Positions 26,573 through 62,102 are shown, counted from the first letter of the stretch. The stretch is DNA of 64,000 nucleotides from Patescibacteria group bacterium (GCA_943356485.1 CALRFD010000005.1:32103-96102); one strand, 5' to 3'. The notes: a model not told the origin generated them from the sequence alone. Translations and numbers: made by a program.

Positions 26573-28810
26573 ATGAAAGATAAAAAATTAGTATCAGTAG
26601 TTATCGTAAGCAGGGATCGGAAGAAAGATCTTACAGAGTGTATTGAATCTTATCTTAACTCCTCATACAAAAATATTGAGGTTATTGTTGTTGATAATGC
26701 TTCCAGGCAGCCAATTTCAGATTGGGTTAGAAAGAAGTACCCTAAAGTAAAAATCATCACCAGTGATAGTAATTTAGGGGCAGCAGAAGGTAGGAATATG
26801 GGTCTTGATGTATCAAAAGGAGACTATATTATTTTCACTGATGATGATGCTTATGCTGATAAAAATATGACAAGGTATTTAGTGGAGGCTTTTGAAAAAA
26901 AGAATGATGCAGGAATTATTCAGCCCTTAGTTTACGACAAACAGGAAAAGAGTACTTTGCAAGGAGCCGGCCATGATATAGATTTGACAACAGGTAGAAT
27001 CAAAGCATGGGGGGTAAAAGAGGAAGATCAGGGTCAATATGAAGGGTTGCGGGAAGTACCGATGTGTGGTTGTGTTTGGATGGTAAAGAGGGAGGTTTTT
27101 AATAAAATTGGCGATTATGATAAGGAGTACTTTATTCCTTATGAGGATTCTGATTTTTCCATTAGGGCAAGGAAAGCAGGTTATAAACTTTATTGTTATT
27201 CACTGGCCAAAAGTTGGCATCAGGGAGTAAAGAAAACCTATATACACCCCTGGATTGAGTGGTTAGGTATCACCTCTTCGATCAGGGCGTATAGAGTAGC
27301 CAGAAATAAAATAATTTTTATGGCAAAGCATTCAGAGTATCCTTCAAATGTCCTTTTTTTTAGCATATTCCTGCCTATCTATATAATTTCGCATTCTTTA
27401 ATAATCATAGCTGCAGGTAAATTTCAGCTATTAAGCTATTATTTAAAAGGAGTTTTTTCGGGTTTAACATATCTGCTTAAAAAGATTTTTAATAGTTTGA
27501 CTTTATTAATTTTAGCCTGGAGTGATCCTCTACCCTGGGTAATTGATAGATCAGCCAAAAGTATATTGGACATAGGTTGTGGGGAAGGTCTGCCTATGAG
27601 GTTAATTAAAAAAAGGATGAAGGTGGAGAGCTCAACAGGGGTTGATTTATTTGAGCCTTATATTAAAAAAGCAAGAAATATACAAACTCACGGCAGTTAC
27701 GAGTTACAGGATATAAGAAAATTAAACTATGGTAGAGAGTCCTTTGATGTTGTAATCGCCTCTCATGTTTTAGAACATTTACCTAAAGAAGAAGCTTTAA
27801 TGGTATTAGAGAAATTAGAGCGGATTGCAAAGAAACAAATTATCATAGCAGCTCCTATTGGTGAAATGTATCATCCGGAGGTGGATGGTAATAAGTTACA
27901 GCTGCATTTATCTGAATTTGAACCGGAAGAATTCGAAAAACGTAATTACCGGATAATAAGATACGGGTGGAAATGGTTGTTGGGCGAGAAAGGTTTAATT
28001 AATAAATATCCTAATATTTTTATTCGAAAGTTAATTTTTATCATCCATTTATTATCAACCCCCCTATTTTACATATTTACTGATATTGGAACATATACCT
28101 TTGTGGCATATAAAACAAAGCCCAAAAAGGAAAATCATGACTTGTTAGTAGATAAACCCAGTAGGCTAAAAATATTTTTAATGTCTCTAACAGATCCTCT
28201 TCCACATGTTGTCGATAAAACTGCCAGGTCAATCTTGGATTTAGGTAGTGGTCAGGGAAAGCCCATGGCAATGATTAAATTTTGGAGAAAGATTGAAAAA
28301 GCAGTTGGAGTAGAGTTATACAGACCTTATATCGACCAGGCTAAACAGCTAGGCTTATATGATCAGTATCTACTTGAGGATGTCAGAAAAATAAATTTTC
28401 CGCCTAAATCTTTTGATATTGTGATGGCCTCTCACGTTTTAGAACATTTATCTCAAAAAGAGGGCTGGGTACTGCTTTCCAGGATGGAGAAAATTGCCAA
28501 AAAACAGGTTATTATTGCAACTCCAATTGGAGAAATTTATCAGCCTATGTTTGATAAGAATATATTACAAGAACATAAGTCTTATTTTTTGCCGGAGCAA
28601 TTTATCAAACGTGGTTATAAAGTTATTAAATATGGAGCAAGATGGATTTTGGATGAACATTCCAATAGTCTAGTATATCAAGCTAGAAACCCTTATTTGA
28701 AAAAATTAGTCTATATCTTTAATTATTTGATTACTCCGCTTTATTACTTTTTTCCGGAGATCTGTGATTATTCATTTGTTGCCTACAAAAATATGACAGA
28801 TGAAAGTTAA
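26573..28810 (+). CDS. Trifunctional fusion: GT2 glycosyltransferase + membrane segment + two tandem class I SAM-methyltransferase domains
   Basis: The N-terminus has the GT2 signature VSVVIVSRDRKKDL...VIVVDNASRQ. Mid-protein TM helices follow. Two repeated units each carry DPLP(W/H)V(I/V)D(R/K)(S/T)A(K/R)SILD(I/L)G(C/S)G(E/Q)G motif I and ASHVLEHL...IAKKQ(I/V)IIA(A/T)PIGE. Confidence 0.75.
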   Translation: MKDKKLVSVVIVSRDRKKDLTECIESYLNSSYKNIEVIVVDNASRQPISDWVRKKYPKVKIITSDSNLGAAEGRNMGLDVSKGDYIIFTDDDAYADKNMTRYLVEAFEKKNDAGIIQPLVYDKQEKSTLQGAGHDIDLTTGRIKAWGVKEEDQGQYEGLREVPMCGCVWMVKREVFNKIGDYDKEYFIPYEDSDFSIRARKAGYKLYCYSLAKSWHQGVKKTYIHPWIEWLGITSSIRAYRVARNKIIFMAKHSEYPSNVLFFSIFLPIYIISHSLIIIAAGKFQLLSYYLKGVFSGLTYLLKKIFNSLTLLILAWSDPLPWVIDRSAKSILDIGCGEGLPMRLIKKRMKVESSTGVDLFEPYIKKARNIQTHGSYELQDIRKLNYGRESFDVVIASHVLEHLPKEEALMVLEKLERIAKKQIIIAAPIGEMYHPEVDGNKLQLHLSEFEPEEFEKRNYRIIRYGWKWLLGEKGLINKYPNIFIRKLIFIIHLLSTPLFYIFTDIGTYTFVAYKTKPKKENHDLLVDKPSRLKIFLMSLTDPLPHVVDKTARSILDLGSGQGKPMAMIKFWRKIEKAVGVELYRPYIDQAKQLGLYDQYLLEDVRKINFPPKSFDIVMASHVLEHLSQKEGWVLLSRMEKIAKKQVIIATPIGEIYQPMFDKNILQEHKSYFLPEQFIKRGYKVIKYGARWILDEHSNSLVYQARNPYLKKLVYIFNYLITPLYYFFPEICDYSFVAYKNMTDES

Positions 28811-39252: not shown

Positions 39253-40538
39253 TTTTTTTATATAATAGCTATATGCTCAAATCAATTATTAAGAGTGCAA
39301 CTTTTAAACAATCGCAGGTAGCTATAATCAGTACCATAATTAACGGAACATTAGGGGCTTTATTCTATATTACCCTGGCTAGATTAGTAGGTCCCTCTAG
39401 CTTTGGATTATTAACTGTTTCCTTGACCACCCTGGTTTTAATCGCAGATATTGTTGATATTGGTACAAACACAGGTTTAATCCGTTTTGTCTCTTCAAAT
39501 TTAACAACGGATAGGAACAAGGCATATAGGTTCTTAAAGTTAAGTTTGGAGATTAAATTAATAGTATGGCTGATAACTTTTGTTGTTATTTTTTCCCTTG
39601 CTCCTTTCTTAGCGACGAATATTTTTCATAAGAGTTCTCTTGTTAGCCCGCTACGTTTGGTTGGCTTTGGAGTAGGGGGAGCTTTGCTTTTTACTTTTGC
39701 TACTTCAATGTTGCAGGCGTTTCAAAAATATTTTCTTTGGAGTCTAGTAAATATTACTACCAATTTTTTAAGATTACTTCTGATACTTATCTTAGGTTTT
39801 TATCTAAAACTTAATGTTCAGAGCAGCTTGGCTACATATATTGCACTTCCAATGTTTGGTTTTTTTATGACGCTTTTATTAGTTCCTGCTCGGGAAATAT
39901 TTTCTGCTAAATCAGAATTTCTTTTACTAAAAGAATTACTTAAATATAATTTACCGGTGGCAATATTTACTATAATTGCTGCTTTCTCTTCAAAATTAGA
40001 CACTTTTCTAAGCGCTACACTTCTTTCCAGTCGGGAGGTTGGAATTTATGGAGCCGCAAGCCAGCTTGTACAAGTTGTGCCTCAGGTGGTTGCAGGTTTA
40101 GGTTTAGTTGCCGCACCCAAGTTTTCTTCCTTTACGAGTGAACATCAGATGGTAATTTATTTAAAAAAACTACAACTACTTGTTTCAGGGTTAGTACTAA
40201 TAGGCATCTTATTGCTTCCTTTAGCAATCTATCTGATTCCGGTATTGTTTGGGCAAGCTTATCAGGATTCGATATCAATATTCATAATTTTATTTTTTGC
40301 TATGCTTGTATTCCTTTTTTCACTGCCGGTTCACAGTAGTGTAATTTTTTATTTTGGCAGACCAGATGTTTTTATTTGGGTATCAATTGGTAATTTAATT
40401 TTGGTCGGAGGACTAGGGTATTTAATGATTCAAAATTTAGGTATGATAGGTGCAGCAGTTTCTGTTTTAATAGGTACAGCCTTTAGCTTTTTATATCCTT
40501 TGGTTTGGCTGTTAGTTAAATTAAAAAAAAATAAATGA
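39249..40538 (+). CDS. Wzx-like oligosaccharide flippase / polysaccharide biosynthesis protein (MOP superfamily)
   Basis: It is 429 aa with about 12 TM helices. The N-terminus SQVAIISTIINGTLGALFYITLARLVGPSSFGLL is typical of the Polysacc_synt/Wzx family. Confidence 0.6.
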   Translation: MIFLYNSYMLKSIIKSATFKQSQVAIISTIINGTLGALFYITLARLVGPSSFGLLTVSLTTLVLIADIVDIGTNTGLIRFVSSNLTTDRNKAYRFLKLSLEIKLIVWLITFVVIFSLAPFLATNIFHKSSLVSPLRLVGFGVGGALLFTFATSMLQAFQKYFLWSLVNITTNFLRLLLILILGFYLKLNVQSSLATYIALPMFGFFMTLLLVPAREIFSAKSEFLLLKELLKYNLPVAIFTIIAAFSSKLDTFLSATLLSSREVGIYGAASQLVQVVPQVVAGLGLVAAPKFSSFTSEHQMVIYLKKLQLLVSGLVLIGILLLPLAIYLIPVLFGQAYQDSISIFIILFFAMLVFLFSLPVHSSVIFYFGRPDVFIWVSIGNLILVGGLGYLMIQNLGMIGAAVSVLIGTAFSFLYPLVWLLVKLKKNK

Positions 40539-41335
40539 AAATTTGGGTAAATACGATTGTAAATAATGAAGAGAACTTTTTATGGTTTAGCGTAATGAGT
40601 GTAGTTGATTTTGTAGATAAGATTTTAATCTGGGACAGTGGGTCAACAGATAACAGTGTTGAAATAATTAAAAAGCTAAAAGAGCTTAAGGGAGATAAAA
40701 TTGAGTTTAAACAGGTGGGGAGGGTAAGCGGTTTGGAGTTTACGAAGATGCGTCAAAAAATGCTGGATCAGTCAAAAAGTGACTGGATCATAATTCTGGA
40801 TGGTGATGAGATCTGGTGGCAAGCCTCTATTAAAAAAATTATTTCTGAAATTATCAAGCGTGGCAGGCAGGTAGAGGGAATTGTTGTGCCGATGGTAGTT
40901 CCTGTTGGAGATATATATCATATTCAAGATGAGAGAGCAGGTAGATATAATATTCTAGGTAAAAAAGGACACTTTAGTTTAAAAGCTTTCAGTAAAGCTA
41001 TCCCCGGTCTTCACGCAGATTGGCCTTATGGGAAAGAGGGATTTTTTGACAAAGATAATCGTTTAATCCAGGAAAGAGAAAAGATCGTTTTTTTGAATGC
41101 CCCCTTTCTACACCTTACACATTTAAAAAGATCGAATTCTAAAAGGCTTTATAATAAGTTTAAATATGAATTAGGTAGATTAGTTCCGGAGGGATTTAAG
41201 TTTCCGGAAATCTTATATAGGGAATTTCCGGAAATGATCTCTTCCCCCTGGAAAAAAATTTCCGGTATAGATTATATTAAAGCAATAATCCAAACACCAT
41301 TAAGATGGATTAAAAGGAGGATTTATTATAGATAA
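40535..41335 (+). CDS. GT-A-like glycosyltransferase (family 2-like)
   Basis: It has LIWDSGSTDNSVEII and a DxD-like ILDGDEIWW. It is 266 aa. Confidence 0.5.
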   Translation: MKIWVNTIVNNEENFLWFSVMSVVDFVDKILIWDSGSTDNSVEIIKKLKELKGDKIEFKQVGRVSGLEFTKMRQKMLDQSKSDWIIILDGDEIWWQASIKKIISEIIKRGRQVEGIVVPMVVPVGDIYHIQDERAGRYNILGKKGHFSLKAFSKAIPGLHADWPYGKEGFFDKDNRLIQEREKIVFLNAPFLHLTHLKRSNSKRLYNKFKYELGRLVPEGFKFPEILYREFPEMISSPWKKISGIDYIKAIIQTPLRWIKRRIYYR

Positions 41336-41348
41336 ATCAAGTCAAACT

Positions 41349-42020
41349 TTGGAATCAATGAGTCAAGCTGTTTGGTATAACAGATGGGTTGAAGGGCAAT
41401 TTTATAAATATCTTTCCGGGAATATCCTAGAAGTCGGTTGTGGTATAGCTAACTTTAGTCAATATCTGTCTAAATATGGAAAATTAACCGCGATAGATAT
41501 AAATAGAGAATATATAAAGCAGGCAAAAAAGAAAGCGGGTATAGATGTAAGAGTAGGATTTGGGGATATTGAGAATGGCCAATATTTTTTTAAAGAACGA
41601 AATTTCAATACTGTTGTTTGTATCAATGTCCTGGAACATATAAATAATGATAAAAAGGCTCTAAAAAATATTGCGGAGTTGTTATTACCAAAAGGCTATT
41701 TGGTTTTGCTTGTCCCGGCTGGTAAATTTCTCTATAATCTAATAGATAGGTCAATCGGTCATTTCCGGCGTTACGAAAAAAATGAACTTTTGCTGCAGTT
41801 AGAGGAAGCAGATTTTGAGATAGTTAAATCAAAAAGGCTAAACTTCTTAGGGGCTTTGGGTTGGTTTATTTCCGGTAGGGTATTTAAAGACAGTAGTGTT
41901 GGTGAAGGGAAGATTAGAATATTTAATTTAATTGCCCCCTTATTTTTAAAGATTGAAAGTATAATTGAGCCGCCCGTTGGGACTTCAATATTAATCATAG
42001 CCAGAAAGAAAGAGAAATGA
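41349..42020 (+). CDS. Class I SAM-dependent methyltransferase
   Basis: It carries motif I ILEVGCGIANFS and NVLEHI...LLPKGYLVL. Confidence 0.75.
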   Translation: MESMSQAVWYNRWVEGQFYKYLSGNILEVGCGIANFSQYLSKYGKLTAIDINREYIKQAKKKAGIDVRVGFGDIENGQYFFKERNFNTVVCINVLEHINNDKKALKNIAELLLPKGYLVLLVPAGKFLYNLIDRSIGHFRRYEKNELLLQLEEADFEIVKSKRLNFLGALGWFISGRVFKDSSVGEGKIRIFNLIAPLFLKIESIIEPPVGTSILIIARKKEK

Positions 42021-58966: not shown

Positions 58967-60157
58967 ATGAAGATTCTAATGCTTACGCCGTATCTACCCT
59001 ATCCTTTACTTACAGGAGGTCAAACCAGATCATATAATTTAATAAAGAGGCTTGCTGCTTTAGGGCATAAGATAACCCTTTTTTGTTTAGTAAAAAGCGA
59101 CAAGGAAAAAAAATATGTTGGAGAGCTGGAAAAATTCTGTGAGGAGGTTTCCGTATTCAACAGATCTGAGAGGCCTTGGACTTTAAGCAATATTTTTAAA
59201 ACAGGATTTTCAATTTATCCTTTTTTGGTTATTAGAAATTGGGCTAGCGGAGAGCGGTCGGCTATAGAAAAAAAGCTTAAGGATCAAAAGTTTGACTTAA
59301 TACATGCAGAGACTTTTTATGTAATGCCGCACATCCCTAAGACAGAGATACCGATCCTTTTGGTTGAACAAACAATTGAATATTTGGTTTATAGTCATTT
59401 TGCAGAGGAGTCGGGTAATCTGGCGCTGAAGCCTCTTTTTTATTTTGATGTTTTGAAGATGAAGTACTGGGAACTTCGATATTGGCAACAGGCGGCAAAA
59501 GTGGTTGCAATGTCAGATGAAGATAGAAGCATAATGATTTCTGAGGTATCCAGATTGAGTGTAGATATTGTTCCTAATGGAGTTGACAGTGTATATTTCA
59601 ACAAATCTATTGCCAGCCGTTCTAAAGAGCAAATAATATTATATGTCGGTAATTTTACCTGGCTGCAAAATCGGGAAGCTGTAGATATTTTGGTAAGAAG
59701 AATCTGGCCAAAGATAAAAAGCCAGTTACCTTTAGCCAAACTTTGGATTATCGGTAAAGAAGCAGAGAAATTTTTCCCAAATTTATCCGAGCAGGATATC
59801 AGGGTTGAGGAAGTTGCCGATATTAGAGAGGTTTATCAGCAGGCATCTGTTTTAGTGGCGCCTATTTATGGAGGAGGGGGAACAAGATATAAAAATTTTG
59901 AAGCCTTTGCTTCCGGGTTACCGGTGGTGACGACCAGTATCGGGATTTCCGGAACAGAGGCAAAGGATGGAGTGGAGGTTATAATCCGGGATCAACCGGA
60001 AGAGATGGCTCAGGCTGTGGTAGAACTTTTGGGAAGTAAAGATCTGTATAGTAAAATCGCCAAAAAGGCTAGAGAAATGGTTAAAAACAGATACGATTGG
60101 GACAGTATCTCCAAAAAATTAAGTGATATTTATGAGCAGCTAGGGAAAAGGGTATAG
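58967..60157 (+). CDS. GT4 (GT-B fold) glycosyltransferase
   Basis: The C-terminus has GGGGTRYKNFEAFASGLPVVTT, an EX7E-like motif. It is 396 aa. Confidence 0.75.
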   Translation: MKILMLTPYLPYPLLTGGQTRSYNLIKRLAALGHKITLFCLVKSDKEKKYVGELEKFCEEVSVFNRSERPWTLSNIFKTGFSIYPFLVIRNWASGERSAIEKKLKDQKFDLIHAETFYVMPHIPKTEIPILLVEQTIEYLVYSHFAEESGNLALKPLFYFDVLKMKYWELRYWQQAAKVVAMSDEDRSIMISEVSRLSVDIVPNGVDSVYFNKSIASRSKEQIILYVGNFTWLQNREAVDILVRRIWPKIKSQLPLAKLWIIGKEAEKFFPNLSEQDIRVEEVADIREVYQQASVLVAPIYGGGGTRYKNFEAFASGLPVVTTSIGISGTEAKDGVEVIIRDQPEEMAQAVVELLGSKDLYSKIAKKAREMVKNRYDWDSISKKLSDIYEQLGKRV

Positions 60158-60177
60158 TTAATATTTTCCTTAGGTTT

Positions 60178-60759
60178 CTATCTGATGAACACCGGTGTTG
60201 CTTGTACAATTGTCTCGTATCGTGTTACAACAGCCATAAAGTTTTTTTGATGATCCCAATTTACTATCCTGTCAAAAGTATCTCCAAGAGTTATGGCATA
60301 TTCTCTTCCTCTTGTAGTAGGAGCAAACAATTCTCGGCTATCCTCATCTGTTCTAACAATAACTAACCCAAGTCCTTCGAGAGAATATAATTCTTTAAGA
60401 AGTGGTCTTACTGAACCATCTCCTGCAAGAAAGTCGGCTAGCGATCTAGGTTGTTCGTTAGGAGCAATGGGTTCGGTTCTAGGCAATTTGTGTAATTCAT
60501 CAGTAGTATAGCTTAATGATACATGATTAAGAAAAGCATCCTGGAAAAACTTTCTGTGGCGGCCTGCTTTTAACAATTGTGCTGCATGAGATGCTTCTGC
60601 AAGAGATTCAACTACTCCTTGCTGAGTGTTTGTGTCAATAACAGCTGCAAGATCTTCAACTTGTCTGCGCGTCAGAGTACCTAATTGATCAACAACATAA
60701 AGAAGAGCATACTTACGTTCTAACTTAGGAACATTTACCGGTAGTCTTTCTTTAGGCAT
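60178..60759 (-). CDS. Hypothetical protein with atypical (GC-richer, Ala/Arg/Leu/Glu/Thr-rich) composition; probably horizontally acquired
   Basis: The track ORF is 60178..60831 from a GTG start. The first 24 codons are AT-rich like intergenic DNA. The composition shift begins exactly at the internal ATG (MPKERLPVN, 60759), so I prefer that start. I recognise no motif. Confidence 0.45.
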   Translation of the reverse strand: MPKERLPVNVPKLERKYALLYVVDQLGTLTRRQVEDLAAVIDTNTQQGVVESLAEASHAAQLLKAGRHRKFFQDAFLNHVSLSYTTDELHKLPRTEPIAPNEQPRSLADFLAGDGSVRPLLKELYSLEGLGLVIVRTDEDSRELFAPTTRGREYAITLGDTFDRIVNWDHQKNFMAVVTRYETIVQATPVFIR

Positions 60760-60827
60760 CGTATGTTTATTATAAATAGAAATATACCATTTGAAAAAAT
60801 TTAAAGCAATATAAAGTCTAAAACTAA

Positions 60828-60928
60828 CCACAACACCACAATTTGTGGACTTTCACGCACGAAAACCACAATTGTTATCCACAACTATCTCTTGTGGTGA
60901 AAGGGGCTCTGCGACAAGCTGATTGTGG
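60828..60928. promoter_or_regulatory. Cluster of seven CCACAA/TTGTGG hexamers incl. a perfect DnaA-box nonamer TTATCCACA and a 13-bp palindrome CCACAATTTGTGG
   Basis: CCACAA occurs at 60828, 60836, 60866 and 60879. TTGTGG occurs at 60843, 60892 and 60923. TTATCCACA lies at 60875-60883 and the palindrome at 60836-60848. The cluster sits in the divergent gap between the atypical gene (-) and a GT4 gene (+). Confidence 0.4.
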
Positions 60929-60992
60929 TAGAGATAAAAATAATTTACACCAGTAATTACAGTCTTTCTTAAGAAAGTATATAATTGTACTT

Positions 60993-62102
60993 ATGCGTAT
61001 CGGAATTGATGCCAGGATGTATTTAGAGTCTGGAATTGGCAGGTATATCCGTAATGTTATAAATAAGCTTCAGGAACTCGATAAGGAAAACGAGTATTTT
61101 ATTCTGCTGAGAAAAGAAGATTTTGAGAACATAAAGTTTAACAGTAATTTTCATAAAGTATTAGCGGATTTTTCCTGGTATGGAATTACCGAGCAGATTA
61201 AATTACCTAAAATATTAAATTCTCTAAAACTGGATCTAGTACATTTTCCTCATTTTAATGTGCCAATTCTTTATAAGGGTAAGTTTGTAGTTACCATTCA
61301 TGATCTAATCCATCAGCATTATCAAATGAAAAGGGCAACAACTCACGGCTTACCAACTTATAAAATTAAACAGTTAGGATATAGAGCAATTTTTAAAAAT
61401 GCCATCTCAAAATCTGTAAAAATATTAGTCCCGTCAGCTTATGTTAAAGAGTTGTTAATAGATGACTGGAAGATAGATATAGGAAAAATAGTTATTACCC
61501 CGGAGGCTGTCGATGACACTATCTTTTCGGTCGTGAACATAATGAAAGGAAAGGATGAACAGGTGATGAAAAAATTTAACATTAAATCGCCATACATATT
61601 TTATGTTGGTAATGCGCATCCGCATAAAAATGTGGAAGGGCTAATTAAGGGGTTTATCAGATTAAGGAATAAATATAAAGACCTGCAATTGGTTTTATCC
61701 GGCAGTGACCATTATTTTTGGCAGAAAATAAAAAAAGAGTTTCACTGGGAAGGAGTTATTTATACAGGATTTATTTCTGATGAAGAGTTAGTTTCACTTT
61801 ATAAAAATGCCAAGTGTTTTGTGATGCCATCATATGAAGAAGGTTTTGGAATACCTTTGCTGGAAGCAATGGCCTGCAAAACCCCGGTTGTTTCATCTAT
61901 GAGCGGATCTTTAAAAGAAGTTGGAGGAGAGGCAGCGGTTTATTTTGATCCGCATAATCTGGAAGATATGATTAAAAAAATAGAGCAGGTTTTAGATAAC
62001 GACAAATTAAGAAAAGATTTAATATCTAAAGGACAAAAAAGAGTAAAGGATTTTAGTTGGGAAAAACTAGCCAAACAAACCCTGGGGGTTTATTTAAAAT
62101 GA
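60993..62102 (+). CDS. GT4 (GT-B fold) glycosyltransferase
   Basis: It has EEGFGIPLLEAMACKTPVVSSMSGSLKEVGG, the EX7E motif. It is 369 aa. Confidence 0.8.
   Translation: MRIGIDARMYLESGIGRYIRNVINKLQELDKENEYFILLRKEDFENIKFNSNFHKVLADFSWYGITEQIKLPKILNSLKLDLVHFPHFNVPILYKGKFVVTIHDLIHQHYQMKRATTHGLPTYKIKQLGYRAIFKNAISKSVKILVPSAYVKELLIDDWKIDIGKIVITPEAVDDTIFSVVNIMKGKDEQVMKKFNIKSPYIFYVGNAHPHKNVEGLIKGFIRLRNKYKDLQLVLSGSDHYFWQKIKKEFHWEGVIYTGFISDEELVSLYKNAKCFVMPSYEEGFGIPLLEAMACKTPVVSSMSGSLKEVGGEAAVYFDPHNLEDMIKKIEQVLDNDKLRKDLISKGQKRVKDFSWEKLAKQTLGVYLK

Follow-up and report, generated by a model that had tools for sequence, protein, structure and literature searches.

A cluster of CCACAA hexamers in a glycan locus of a Patescibacteria group bacterium is one copy of a conserved non-coding module

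The locus and the hexamer cluster

The subject of this analysis is a dense cluster of the hexamer CCACAA and its inverse, TTGTGG, at positions 60,828 to 60,928 of a 64,000-nt stretch of DNA from a Patescibacteria group bacterium (GCA_943356485.1, CALRFD010000005.1:32103-96102; the whole stretch is called the window in the following). The window is a low-GC (~33%) glycan-synthesis region, and its closest relatives are metagenome-assembled genomes of Candidatus Daviesbacteria and of other Microgenomates-group bacteria of the candidate phyla radiation (CPR). The cluster is located between orfX (60178..60759, minus strand, ATG at 60759), which encodes a protein of 193 aa, and a GT4 glycosyltransferase gene that starts at 60993. 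It is one copy of a conserved, bounded, non-coding module of ~125 nt, which occupies positions 60818..60942 in the window and is present at non-homologous places elsewhere.

The two GT4 genes that border the region (58967-60157 and 60993-62102) were compared with their orthologs in nine related loci. In seven of these (L006-L008 and L110-L113) the GT4 genes abut or overlap by 4 nt, and in the other two (L009 and L010) the gap between them is occupied by a GT2 gene on the plus strand. None of the related Daviesbacteria loci has a CCACAA cluster. Because the GT4 genes adjoin in the relatives, the 835 bp from 60158 to 60992, which consist of orfX and a 233-bp intergenic region with the module, are a lineage-specific insertion relative to these loci. 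The GT4-GT4 junction is thus variable, i.e., the genes abut or overlap, or they are separated either by GT2 or by orfX together with the module. The same-species contigs L002-L005 were 100% identical across the region and, thus, uninformative on variation.

Promoter-like sites were predicted on both sides of the cluster. The site for orfX, TTTTCA-17-TATAAT (60769..60797, minus strand), has the end of its -10 box 9 nt before the ATG, and the site for the GT4 gene, ATTACA-18-TATAAT (60956..60985, plus strand), has it 7 nt before the ATG. The initial annotation had placed the cluster in a divergent promoter region between a foreign-looking gene and the GT4 gene, and both the position and the divergent layout were borne out. 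The array overlaps with neither predicted promoter, its distance to the predicted -35 boxes being 31 bp on the side of orfX and 28 bp on the side of the GT4 gene. The hexamer nearest to orfX is ~65 bp upstream of the predicted start point of this gene.

The short distance between -10 box and ATG was also seen at other genes of the window. A TATAAT-like box is present 4-13 nt before the ATG, with no Shine-Dalgarno sequence, at the starts 2105 (minus strand), 2170, 12963, 26573, 46144, 60759 (minus strand) and 60993; the gap between box and ATG is longer at 26573 and 46144. This pattern points to a common occurrence of mRNAs with no or almost no leader in this organism.

The cluster contains four CCACAA hexamers on the plus strand, which start at 60828, 60836, 60866 and 60879, and three TTGTGG hexamers, which start at 60843, 60892 and 60923, as had been annotated initially; the sequence from 60820 to 60930 is aaaactaaCCACAAcaCCACAAtTTGTGGactttcacgcacgaaaaCCACAAttgttatCCACAActatctcTTGTGGtgaaaggggctctgcgacaagctgaTTGTGGtag. 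All CCACA pentamers in this region (7/7) are followed by an A, and, therefore, the hexamer CCACAA is the repeat unit. The preceding base is usually A or T. Site b (60828..60833, plus strand) is followed by the sites c and c' (60836..60848), which form the 13-bp palindrome CCACAA-T-TTGTGG, CCACAATTTGTGG. Site d (60866..60871, plus strand) is followed by a decayed site d' (60872..60877, minus strand), which reads TTGTTA in the window, and the palindrome ACAATTGT is found at 60868-60875. The sites e and e' (60879..60897) are arranged as CCACAA-N7-TTGTGG, the last TTGTGG is site f' (60923..60928, minus strand), and a conserved A-rich box, ATAAAAATAAT (60934..60944), is present at the 3' edge of the module. 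The nonamer TTATCCACA (60875..60883, plus strand), which looks exactly like a DnaA box, is composed of the decayed d' and of site e. Both palindromes and the nonamer had been claimed before, and each of them was found at its place.

The window contains 30 CCACAA/TTGTGG hexamers in total, compared to 25.9 +/- 5.3 expected, and thus there is no overall enrichment. Seven of the 30 are within the 101 bp from 60828 to 60928, where ~0.04 are expected per 100 bp. For seven hexamers in 101 bp, the Poisson probability based on the background rate is ~1.6e-14 per position and ~1e-9 across the window. In 300 mononucleotide shuffles the count did not exceed three for any stretch of 101 bp. Among all hexamers of the window, CCACAA/TTGTGG at 60828-60928 forms the densest non-homopolymer cluster. 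The comparison of motif counts with chance, which the initial annotation had proposed, has two sides: the 101-bp cluster is far above chance, whereas the totals of the hexamer and of TTATCCACA across the window are at chance. Because of the lack of window-wide enrichment, an uptake sequence and a Chi-like sequence were also rejected. The GC content of the cluster is 46.5%, compared to 17.6% (60760-60827) and 21.9% (60929-60992) in the adjacent sequences, and the cluster is indeed GC-richer than its surroundings, as had been noticed.

Copies of the module and conservation within them

Metagenome contigs were scanned for the palindrome c-c', followed by two further CCACAA hexamers, each within 31 nt; according to our own estimate ~2 chance hits were expected for this pattern. 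The scan returned 17 loci. Four of them have the architecture of the window, i.e., L089:147-276, L092:2319-2439, L095:182-313 and L103:1046-1170, and all four have a GC content of 37%. The other 13 matches were rejected, because they were tandem repeats or other unrelated sequence.

The 5' part of the module can be outlined as [CCACAA]-..-CCACAA-ca-CCACAAtTTGTGG-(16-17 nt)-CCACAATTGTGG-(t/a)-CCACAA, and the 3' part after the last CCACAA as (7 nt)-TTGTGG-(24-25 nt, small hairpin)-TTGTGG-..-ATAAAAT. The pairwise identity of the four metagenome copies is 82-88% over ~115-140 nt. Site order and spacing are common to all five copies, and their flanks are mostly unrelated. A profile was made of the five-copy alignment (A5), and with nhmmer it matched each copy with E-values of 1e-34 to 1e-40 (window: E=3e-34). 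The same profile revealed no sixth copy in ~1.1 Mb of fetched loci, and the window contains a single copy. The neighbours of the module are a P-type ATPase and a trehalose-phosphate synthase in L089, two proteins without an assigned function in L092, and a nuclease, a winged helix-turn-helix protein, RadC, Vsr, HNH and Dcm in L095. The copies in L089 and L092 are from one metagenome assembly, and their flanks are different.

The cluster is non-random and homologous to the four copies elsewhere, and the conservation is focused on the hexamers. In the five copies 48 of the 54 hexamer columns are invariant, compared to 19 of the 57 spacer columns (Fisher, 1.7e-9), and six substitutions in hexamer columns stand against 45 in spacer columns. 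Four of the hexamers were preset by the search pattern with which four of the five copies were found; when the columns fixed by the pattern were left out, 24 of 30 hexamer columns and 18 of 56 spacer columns were invariant (p=3e-5). Site b is invariant in 5/5 copies, and so is the palindrome c-c', which was part of the search pattern, so that its invariance in the other copies was preset. The hexamers of e and e' are invariant as well, and the 7-nt spacer between them has a constant length and a variable sequence. The same is true for the module as a whole, i.e., the spacer lengths are fixed with the exception of one 1-nt difference, and the spacer sequences drift.

Each copy contains 7-10 repeats of (A/T)CCACAA, which have a fixed order, orientation and spacing. 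An extra CCACAA, site a, is unpaired in the folded model that is discussed below, and three copies have retained it without a change. In L095 and L103 site b is likewise intact, even though its putative pairing partner f' is mutated to TTATGG. The conservation does not end with the outermost hexamers, but continues into the A-rich box. The copy in the window is the most decayed one: it is without site a, the small hairpin of its last spacer is broken, and its d' reads TTGTTA, compared to TTGTGG in three of the other copies and CTGTGG in L095 (alignment A5).

The conservation also revealed the origin of the DnaA-box look-alike. In the other four copies the corresponding position reads TGGTCCACA or TGGACCACA, i.e., TGG(T/A)CCACA, and an exact box is absent. 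The window has an exact TTATCCACA because one TTGTGG, d', decayed to TTGTTA, which adjoins the TCCACA of site e. The box is thus a local accident that is not conserved. The counts are in line with chance: one exact TTATCCACA is present in the window versus ~0.8 expected (our own estimate from the base composition), and 23 sequences with at most one mismatch versus 19.4 expected. Within the module there is the one exact box and no box with one mismatch; the next best ones, CTAACCACA and TTCACCACA, have two mismatches, and the remaining sites differ from the DnaA box at 2-4 of the nine positions. The conserved A after CCACA is not part of the DnaA box, and the TTAT half of the box is not conserved. 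These comparisons were made with the canonical consensus, which may not be that of CPR bacteria; in the literature searched on CPR origins and promoters nothing relevant was found, including no DnaA-box preference of CPR bacteria.

The module represents an element family that has not been described before, in a poorly understood group of bacteria. Searches for tRNA, tmRNA and Rfam families in the window and the four module loci revealed nothing but one distant tRNA in L095; for Rfam, there was no match at the gathering score, and only chance-level matches were obtained with an E-value threshold. In published literature on the motif nothing relevant was found, and to our knowledge hardly anything is known of non-coding elements or of the regulation of genes in CPR/Patescibacteria. 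Blastn searches with the 835-bp insertion and with an intact copy of the module against phage and plasmid collections gave no match, and in two scans of viral contigs the module architecture was not found.

A viral scan for the palindrome and one hexamer gave matches, which are unrelated phage sequences that resemble operators. The phage contigs L106 (5655-5734), L107 (12625-12655) and L108 (2028-2058) contain closely spaced CCACAA-N-TTGTGG pairs or arrays that look like repressor operators, and in L107 and L108 the second palindrome of the pair is a variant of CCACAA-N-TTGTGG. Long tandem arrays with periods of ~20, 27 and 35 nt were observed in L091 (550-1550), L093, L101 and L090/L097. CCACAAtTTGTGG or CCACAA is part of the repeated units, and the arrays have no relationship to the module. 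Downstream of the module, L092 (1970-2440) and L095 (1-300) have ~260 nt of non-coding sequence in common, which contains a GC-rich hairpin repeat, gcgaaggccgcgattagcggcc.... This repeat recurs at L095 10798-11018 and, thus, represents a second dispersed repeat family in these genomes.

Protein sites, folded RNA or mobile element

The reading that we favour, tentatively and as a serious possibility rather than as a probability, is that the module provides a DNA-binding protein, which acts in trans and recognizes a specific sequence, with an array of sites that is portable and that in the window is situated between two divergent promoters. We infer that protein binding rather than RNA pairing has been selected, and that binding has an effect on transcription. 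The functional units would be the 7-10 (A/T)CCACAA repeats in their fixed order, orientation and spacing. The hexamers would be the sites of the binder, which is not necessarily the neighbouring orfX, and the binder would build a multi-protein complex on the DNA of the module. In the lineage of the window, the module arrived with orfX in the 835-bp insertion, by which the tightly coupled GT4-GT4 pair was split. It now resides 30-130 bp upstream of two divergent, putatively near-leaderless promoters, i.e., those of orfX and of the GT4/sugar-transferase operon, and would most likely be a shared upstream operator or activator site for both. The coupling of the GT4/sugar-transferase operon to its upstream genes was cut by the insertion. 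The locus marks a recent rewiring, in which a translationally coupled glycosyltransferase pair was cut and the downstream half of a surface-glycan operon was put under a new upstream sequence.

Several features of the module argue for protein sites. A single hexamer is reused in both orientations, and the palindromes abut with spacers of 0 or 1 nt and are unable to fold alone. As described above, site a is kept without a partner, site b is kept where f' is mutated, and the spacers are fixed in length and drift in sequence. A covariation signal above the controls was found on neither strand, and there was no match to Rfam. In addition, promoter-like sites are present on both flanks, and operator-like CCACAA-N-TTGTGG pairs and arrays occur in unrelated phage contigs. 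Arrays of short motifs that are cooperatively bound by a small protein are known from the heptads of the omega protein (pSM19035) and the tetramer boxes of ParG (TP228). In these operators and in the module alike, a single short motif is densely repeated, both directly and inverted, in front of promoters. In contrast to the operators, the repeats of the module are 0-31 bp apart, while the omega and ParG repeats are contiguous, on plasmids and beside the gene of the binder; the module is chromosomal, dispersed, and without a linked binder. In its putative function the module is most similar to multi-repeat operator arrays or DnaA-type assembly regions, and in its distribution to putative mobile promoters (PMC3575422) or to dispersed repeats of the ERIC/MITE type.

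Other results weigh against sites for a protein. On the strand of the module in L089 and L092, 370-410 nt separate the module from the next gene, for which a TATAAT box of its own is present; therefore, a role as proximal operator cannot be general, and the module is autonomous and not a fixed part of a promoter. The spacings of the half-sites, 0, 1 and 7 nt, are unsuited to a single dimeric binder. The order of the sites is that of a nested four-helix junction with linkers of 0-2 nt, and copies fold alone. One compensatory change from A-U to C-G flanks the closing helix in L092, and the whole module including its spacers is GC-richer than its flanks. Furthermore, the conservation is based on five copies only, four of which were found by a pattern that required four of the hexamers.

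Some of these points lead to the strongest alternative explanation, which we regard as only somewhat less likely than sites for a protein. The module might be transcribed into an RNA that functions in its folded form, as a small RNA or as a 5' leader, and the same fold would be possible in single-stranded DNA. The fold would be a four-helix junction of CCACAA-UUGUGG helices, with b-f' as the closing helix, c-c' with d-d' as a hairpin of 12-13 bp, a hairpin of e-e', and a fourth hairpin. Exactly such a nested junction results from the order of the sites, b c c' d d' e e' f', and the consensus fold takes in every hexamer but site a. Three of the five copies, L089, L092 and L103, adopt this fold alone when the plus strand is considered, and the fold z-scores are -2.5 to -5.6 across both strands. 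The presence of a GC-rich island in AT-rich intergenic DNA and the independence of the module from neighbouring genes would also be in accordance with an RNA. The A-rich box at the edge of the module reads TATTTT on the minus strand, and the first hexamer follows after 8 nt in four copies and after 9 nt in L103. On the same strand, terminator-like hairpins are present beyond the module in L095 and L092, and in the window this strand runs into orfX.

Other observations weigh against the fold. In the five-copy alignment both partners differ in one or two pairs, a number that the shuffle controls also reach, and most pairs are without any variation. An equal or better covariation was obtained with 199 of 500 shuffles for the minus strand and with 39 of 500 for the plus strand, and the covariation term of RNAalifold is zero or unfavourable. 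Changes that are compatible with G-U pairs favour different strands in different copies. The use of one hexamer in all helices invites misfolding, site a is conserved without a pairing partner, and the copy in the window has lost d' and the fourth hairpin. The TATTTT of the A-rich box (60934..60944) has no -35 partner, a full promoter of the sigma-70 type was not called there, and a consistent terminator was not found either. The failure to match any Rfam family has already been mentioned.

A variant of this explanation would combine folding with mobility. The module would be an autonomous element of Microgenomates-type CPR bacteria with a four-way-junction fold of RNA or single-stranded DNA that is made from one repeated hexamer, and it would move between loci and bring a small cargo or promoter function into operons. 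We consider this variant quite unlikely. If true, a single gene would have been carried into a glycan operon here, and the module would be part of a new cassette-insertion or regulatory-RNA system instead of a common operator.

It is unlikely, but somewhat less so than the combined variant, that the module serves a replicon, or a mobile or recombining DNA element, as its recognition region. In that case a transposase, a recombinase or an initiator would bind to the hexamers, and selection would act on the element itself, for which a dispersed repeat like MITEs or ERIC, an arm of the att type and an origin similar to those with iterons are conceivable models. The distribution is in favour of such an element: one bounded module at five non-homologous places, as is characteristic for MITEs and dispersed repeats, with two copies in one metagenome assembly that have different flanks, and in the window as part of an insertion that is absent from nine related loci. 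Inverted hexamers are present near both ends, and AT-rich DNA adjoins. In contrast, neither terminal inverted repeats nor target-site duplications were found at the edges of the 835-bp insertion, and the conservation extends beyond the outermost hexamers. No transposase, integrase or Rep gene is nearby, a second copy is lacking in the 64-kb window and in the fetched loci, and nothing similar was detected in the phage, plasmid and viral collections.

Like ERIC elements, MITEs and REPINs, the module has a length of ~100-130 nt and an imperfect palindromic build, is conserved across species and resides at unrelated intergenic sites; unlike them, it consists of about nine copies of one hexamer instead of two long arms, and neither terminal inverted repeats nor target-site duplications were seen. 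REPINs have been reviewed (PMC8049555). Putative mobile promoters are highly similar intergenic blocks before non-homologous genes in different genomes (PMC3575422). A similar block before non-homologous genes was also found here, and the module is located at a site at which the operon was interrupted by an insertion and required a new promoter region. Unlike mobile promoters, the -10-like box at its edge has no -35 box, and the downstream genes have their own TATAAT.

Iterons, i.e., direct repeats of 17-22 bp, are found in plasmid origins like those of pPS10, R6K and F. The locus resembles iteron origins in that repeats, an AT-rich stretch, a DnaA box and an adjacent putative winged-helix gene are present. 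It differs from them because orfX matches no Rep family, a plasmid or phage homolog was not found, and the DnaA box is not conserved. An iteron-type origin was rejected, as the repeats are cores of 6-7 bp in mixed orientation and orfX has no match to a Rep family. The remnant of a plasmid or phage origin that had been considered in the initial annotation thus did not hold, given repeats that are not iteron-like, no Rep-like gene, and no phage, plasmid or viral match. An attC site of integrons was also rejected. The core consensus of attC is RYYYAAC/GTTRRRY, and CCACAAC/GTTGTGG fits to 5/7 consensus positions (judged by eye), but the module has nine boxes, in contrast to the two pairs of attC, and an integrase was not observed. 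The module is a cis-acting repeat array or a small non-coding element, which is less exotic than a DnaA region or the remnant of an origin.

For the favoured reading, i.e., sites for a DNA-binding protein, a sharply bounded, conserved module with nine invariant recognition hexamers could serve as a bait for the binding protein, and it could likewise be used as a probe for a new small RNA. Mapping of module copies across genomes could define a regulon or a mobile-element family.

The neighbouring gene orfX, the DnaA box and a second cluster

The protein encoded by orfX has no match in Pfam, NCBIfam, PHROG or the PDB sequences, and a profile of 38 relatives gave only spurious matches, to TAL-effector repeats. 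Two close relatives were present among 5.8 billion protein clusters. An exhaustive HMMER search added 47 more distant clusters (clustered at 50% identity) of proteins of ~200 aa, and the motif of the family is AGxGPARPLLKELYSLExLG. An AlphaFold (AF2) model of orfX based on the 38 relatives has a predicted local distance difference test (pLDDT) score of 94.4. A fold search with the model gave weak local matches between the C-terminal part and the winged helices of MarR, PadR and Sso10a (E of at least 0.035, ~55 residues, root-mean-square deviation ~2 A). Judged from this model, orfX is probably a DNA-binding protein of a new family with a C-terminal winged helix.

The genes of orfX relatives are found in various settings, i.e., beside ychF (twice), right after tRNA-His, after infC-rpmI-rplT, beside a higBA-like pair, and once among conjugation genes. 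Two relatives, P0029 and P0038, are fused into proteins of 575-576 aa. The closest non-identical relative (65% identity) starts ~50 nt after a sequence that resembles tRNA-His (L081 1-76; the anticodon GTG was read by eye). tRNA genes are typical integration sites for foreign DNA. In the case of another relative, P0004, the TATAAT box of the gene is covered by a perfect palindrome of the 7-3-7 type, AGTTGAT-ATA-ATCAACT (L085 5978-5994), which has the look of an autoregulatory operator and is unrelated in sequence to CCACAA.

The array might be the operator of orfX, which, as a winged-helix regulator, would control its own promoter and the divergent GT4 operon by repression or activation. Several observations are in favour of this explanation: orfX and the module were inserted together, in the lineage of the window only; the model is confident, and its C-terminal part matches winged-helix regulators locally; the layout with divergent promoters is typical for autoregulated regulators; and the relative P0004 has the 17-bp palindrome over its own -10 box. 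The distribution is different from the expectation for an operator and its regulator. In nine loci with six different proteins of the orfX family (L001, L081-L087) a CCACAA array was not found, some of the contig flanks being short, and no orfX relative is present near the other four module copies within the available, short contigs. In addition, no member of the family was found in the scan of the viral contigs and of the metagenome collection that contains these copies, the latter search being limited by the pattern. The winged helix-turn-helix protein of L095 was considered as a counterpart of orfX and rejected, because it is 2.3 kb away from the module and unrelated to orfX.

The module is thus not linked to orfX in other loci, as there are arrays that have no orfX relatives and orfX relatives that have no arrays. 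Also the fold matches are weak, and the nearest hexamer is ~65 bp upstream of the predicted start point, with no overlap with the predicted promoter. An operator of orfX is, therefore, improbable. Of the initial proposal that the cluster is an operator array for a regulator, possibly the adjacent foreign protein, the conserved array of recognition hexamers in five copies and its insertion with orfX hold true, but orfX as the binder is not supported by co-occurrence elsewhere.

Clusters of DnaA boxes, as in oriC and datA, consist of irregularly spaced boxes in mixed orientation beside AT-rich DNA. Like the clusters of oriC, of datA in E. coli and of B. subtilis, the module has short asymmetric sites with a CCACA core, which is present in every hexamer, in both orientations and with irregular spacing, and it has an AT-rich neighbour. 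Unlike them, its unit is the 6-7-mer (A/T)CCACAA instead of a 9-mer, and four of the copies have no exact box. The cumulative GC skew climbs steadily across the window and through the site, the gene orientation does not switch there, and the genes adjacent to the array are orfX and glycosyltransferases and not dnaA/dnaN (this refers to the neighbours only; the rest of the window was not annotated for these genes). With an exact box and a TTAT half that are not conserved and no switch of the skew, a cluster of DnaA boxes that titrates DnaA or places the promoters under DnaA control, as had been suggested from the exact match at 60875-60883, is very improbable. The case shows that decaying repeats in a cluster can give rise to an exact match to the DnaA box as a by-product, which is of importance for the automated prediction of origins and DnaA regulons.

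The second-strongest hexamer cluster of the window is located at 41184-41266. It contains three palindromes of the TTTCCGGAAA type, at 41200-41212, 41224-41236 and 41257-41266, and a partial one at 41184-41190, which are ~24-33 bp apart. No tandem repeat was called in this region. The cluster lies inside the 3' end of the open reading frame 40535-41335 and just upstream of the open reading frame 41349-42020, and the palindromes may be an operator array within a coding sequence.

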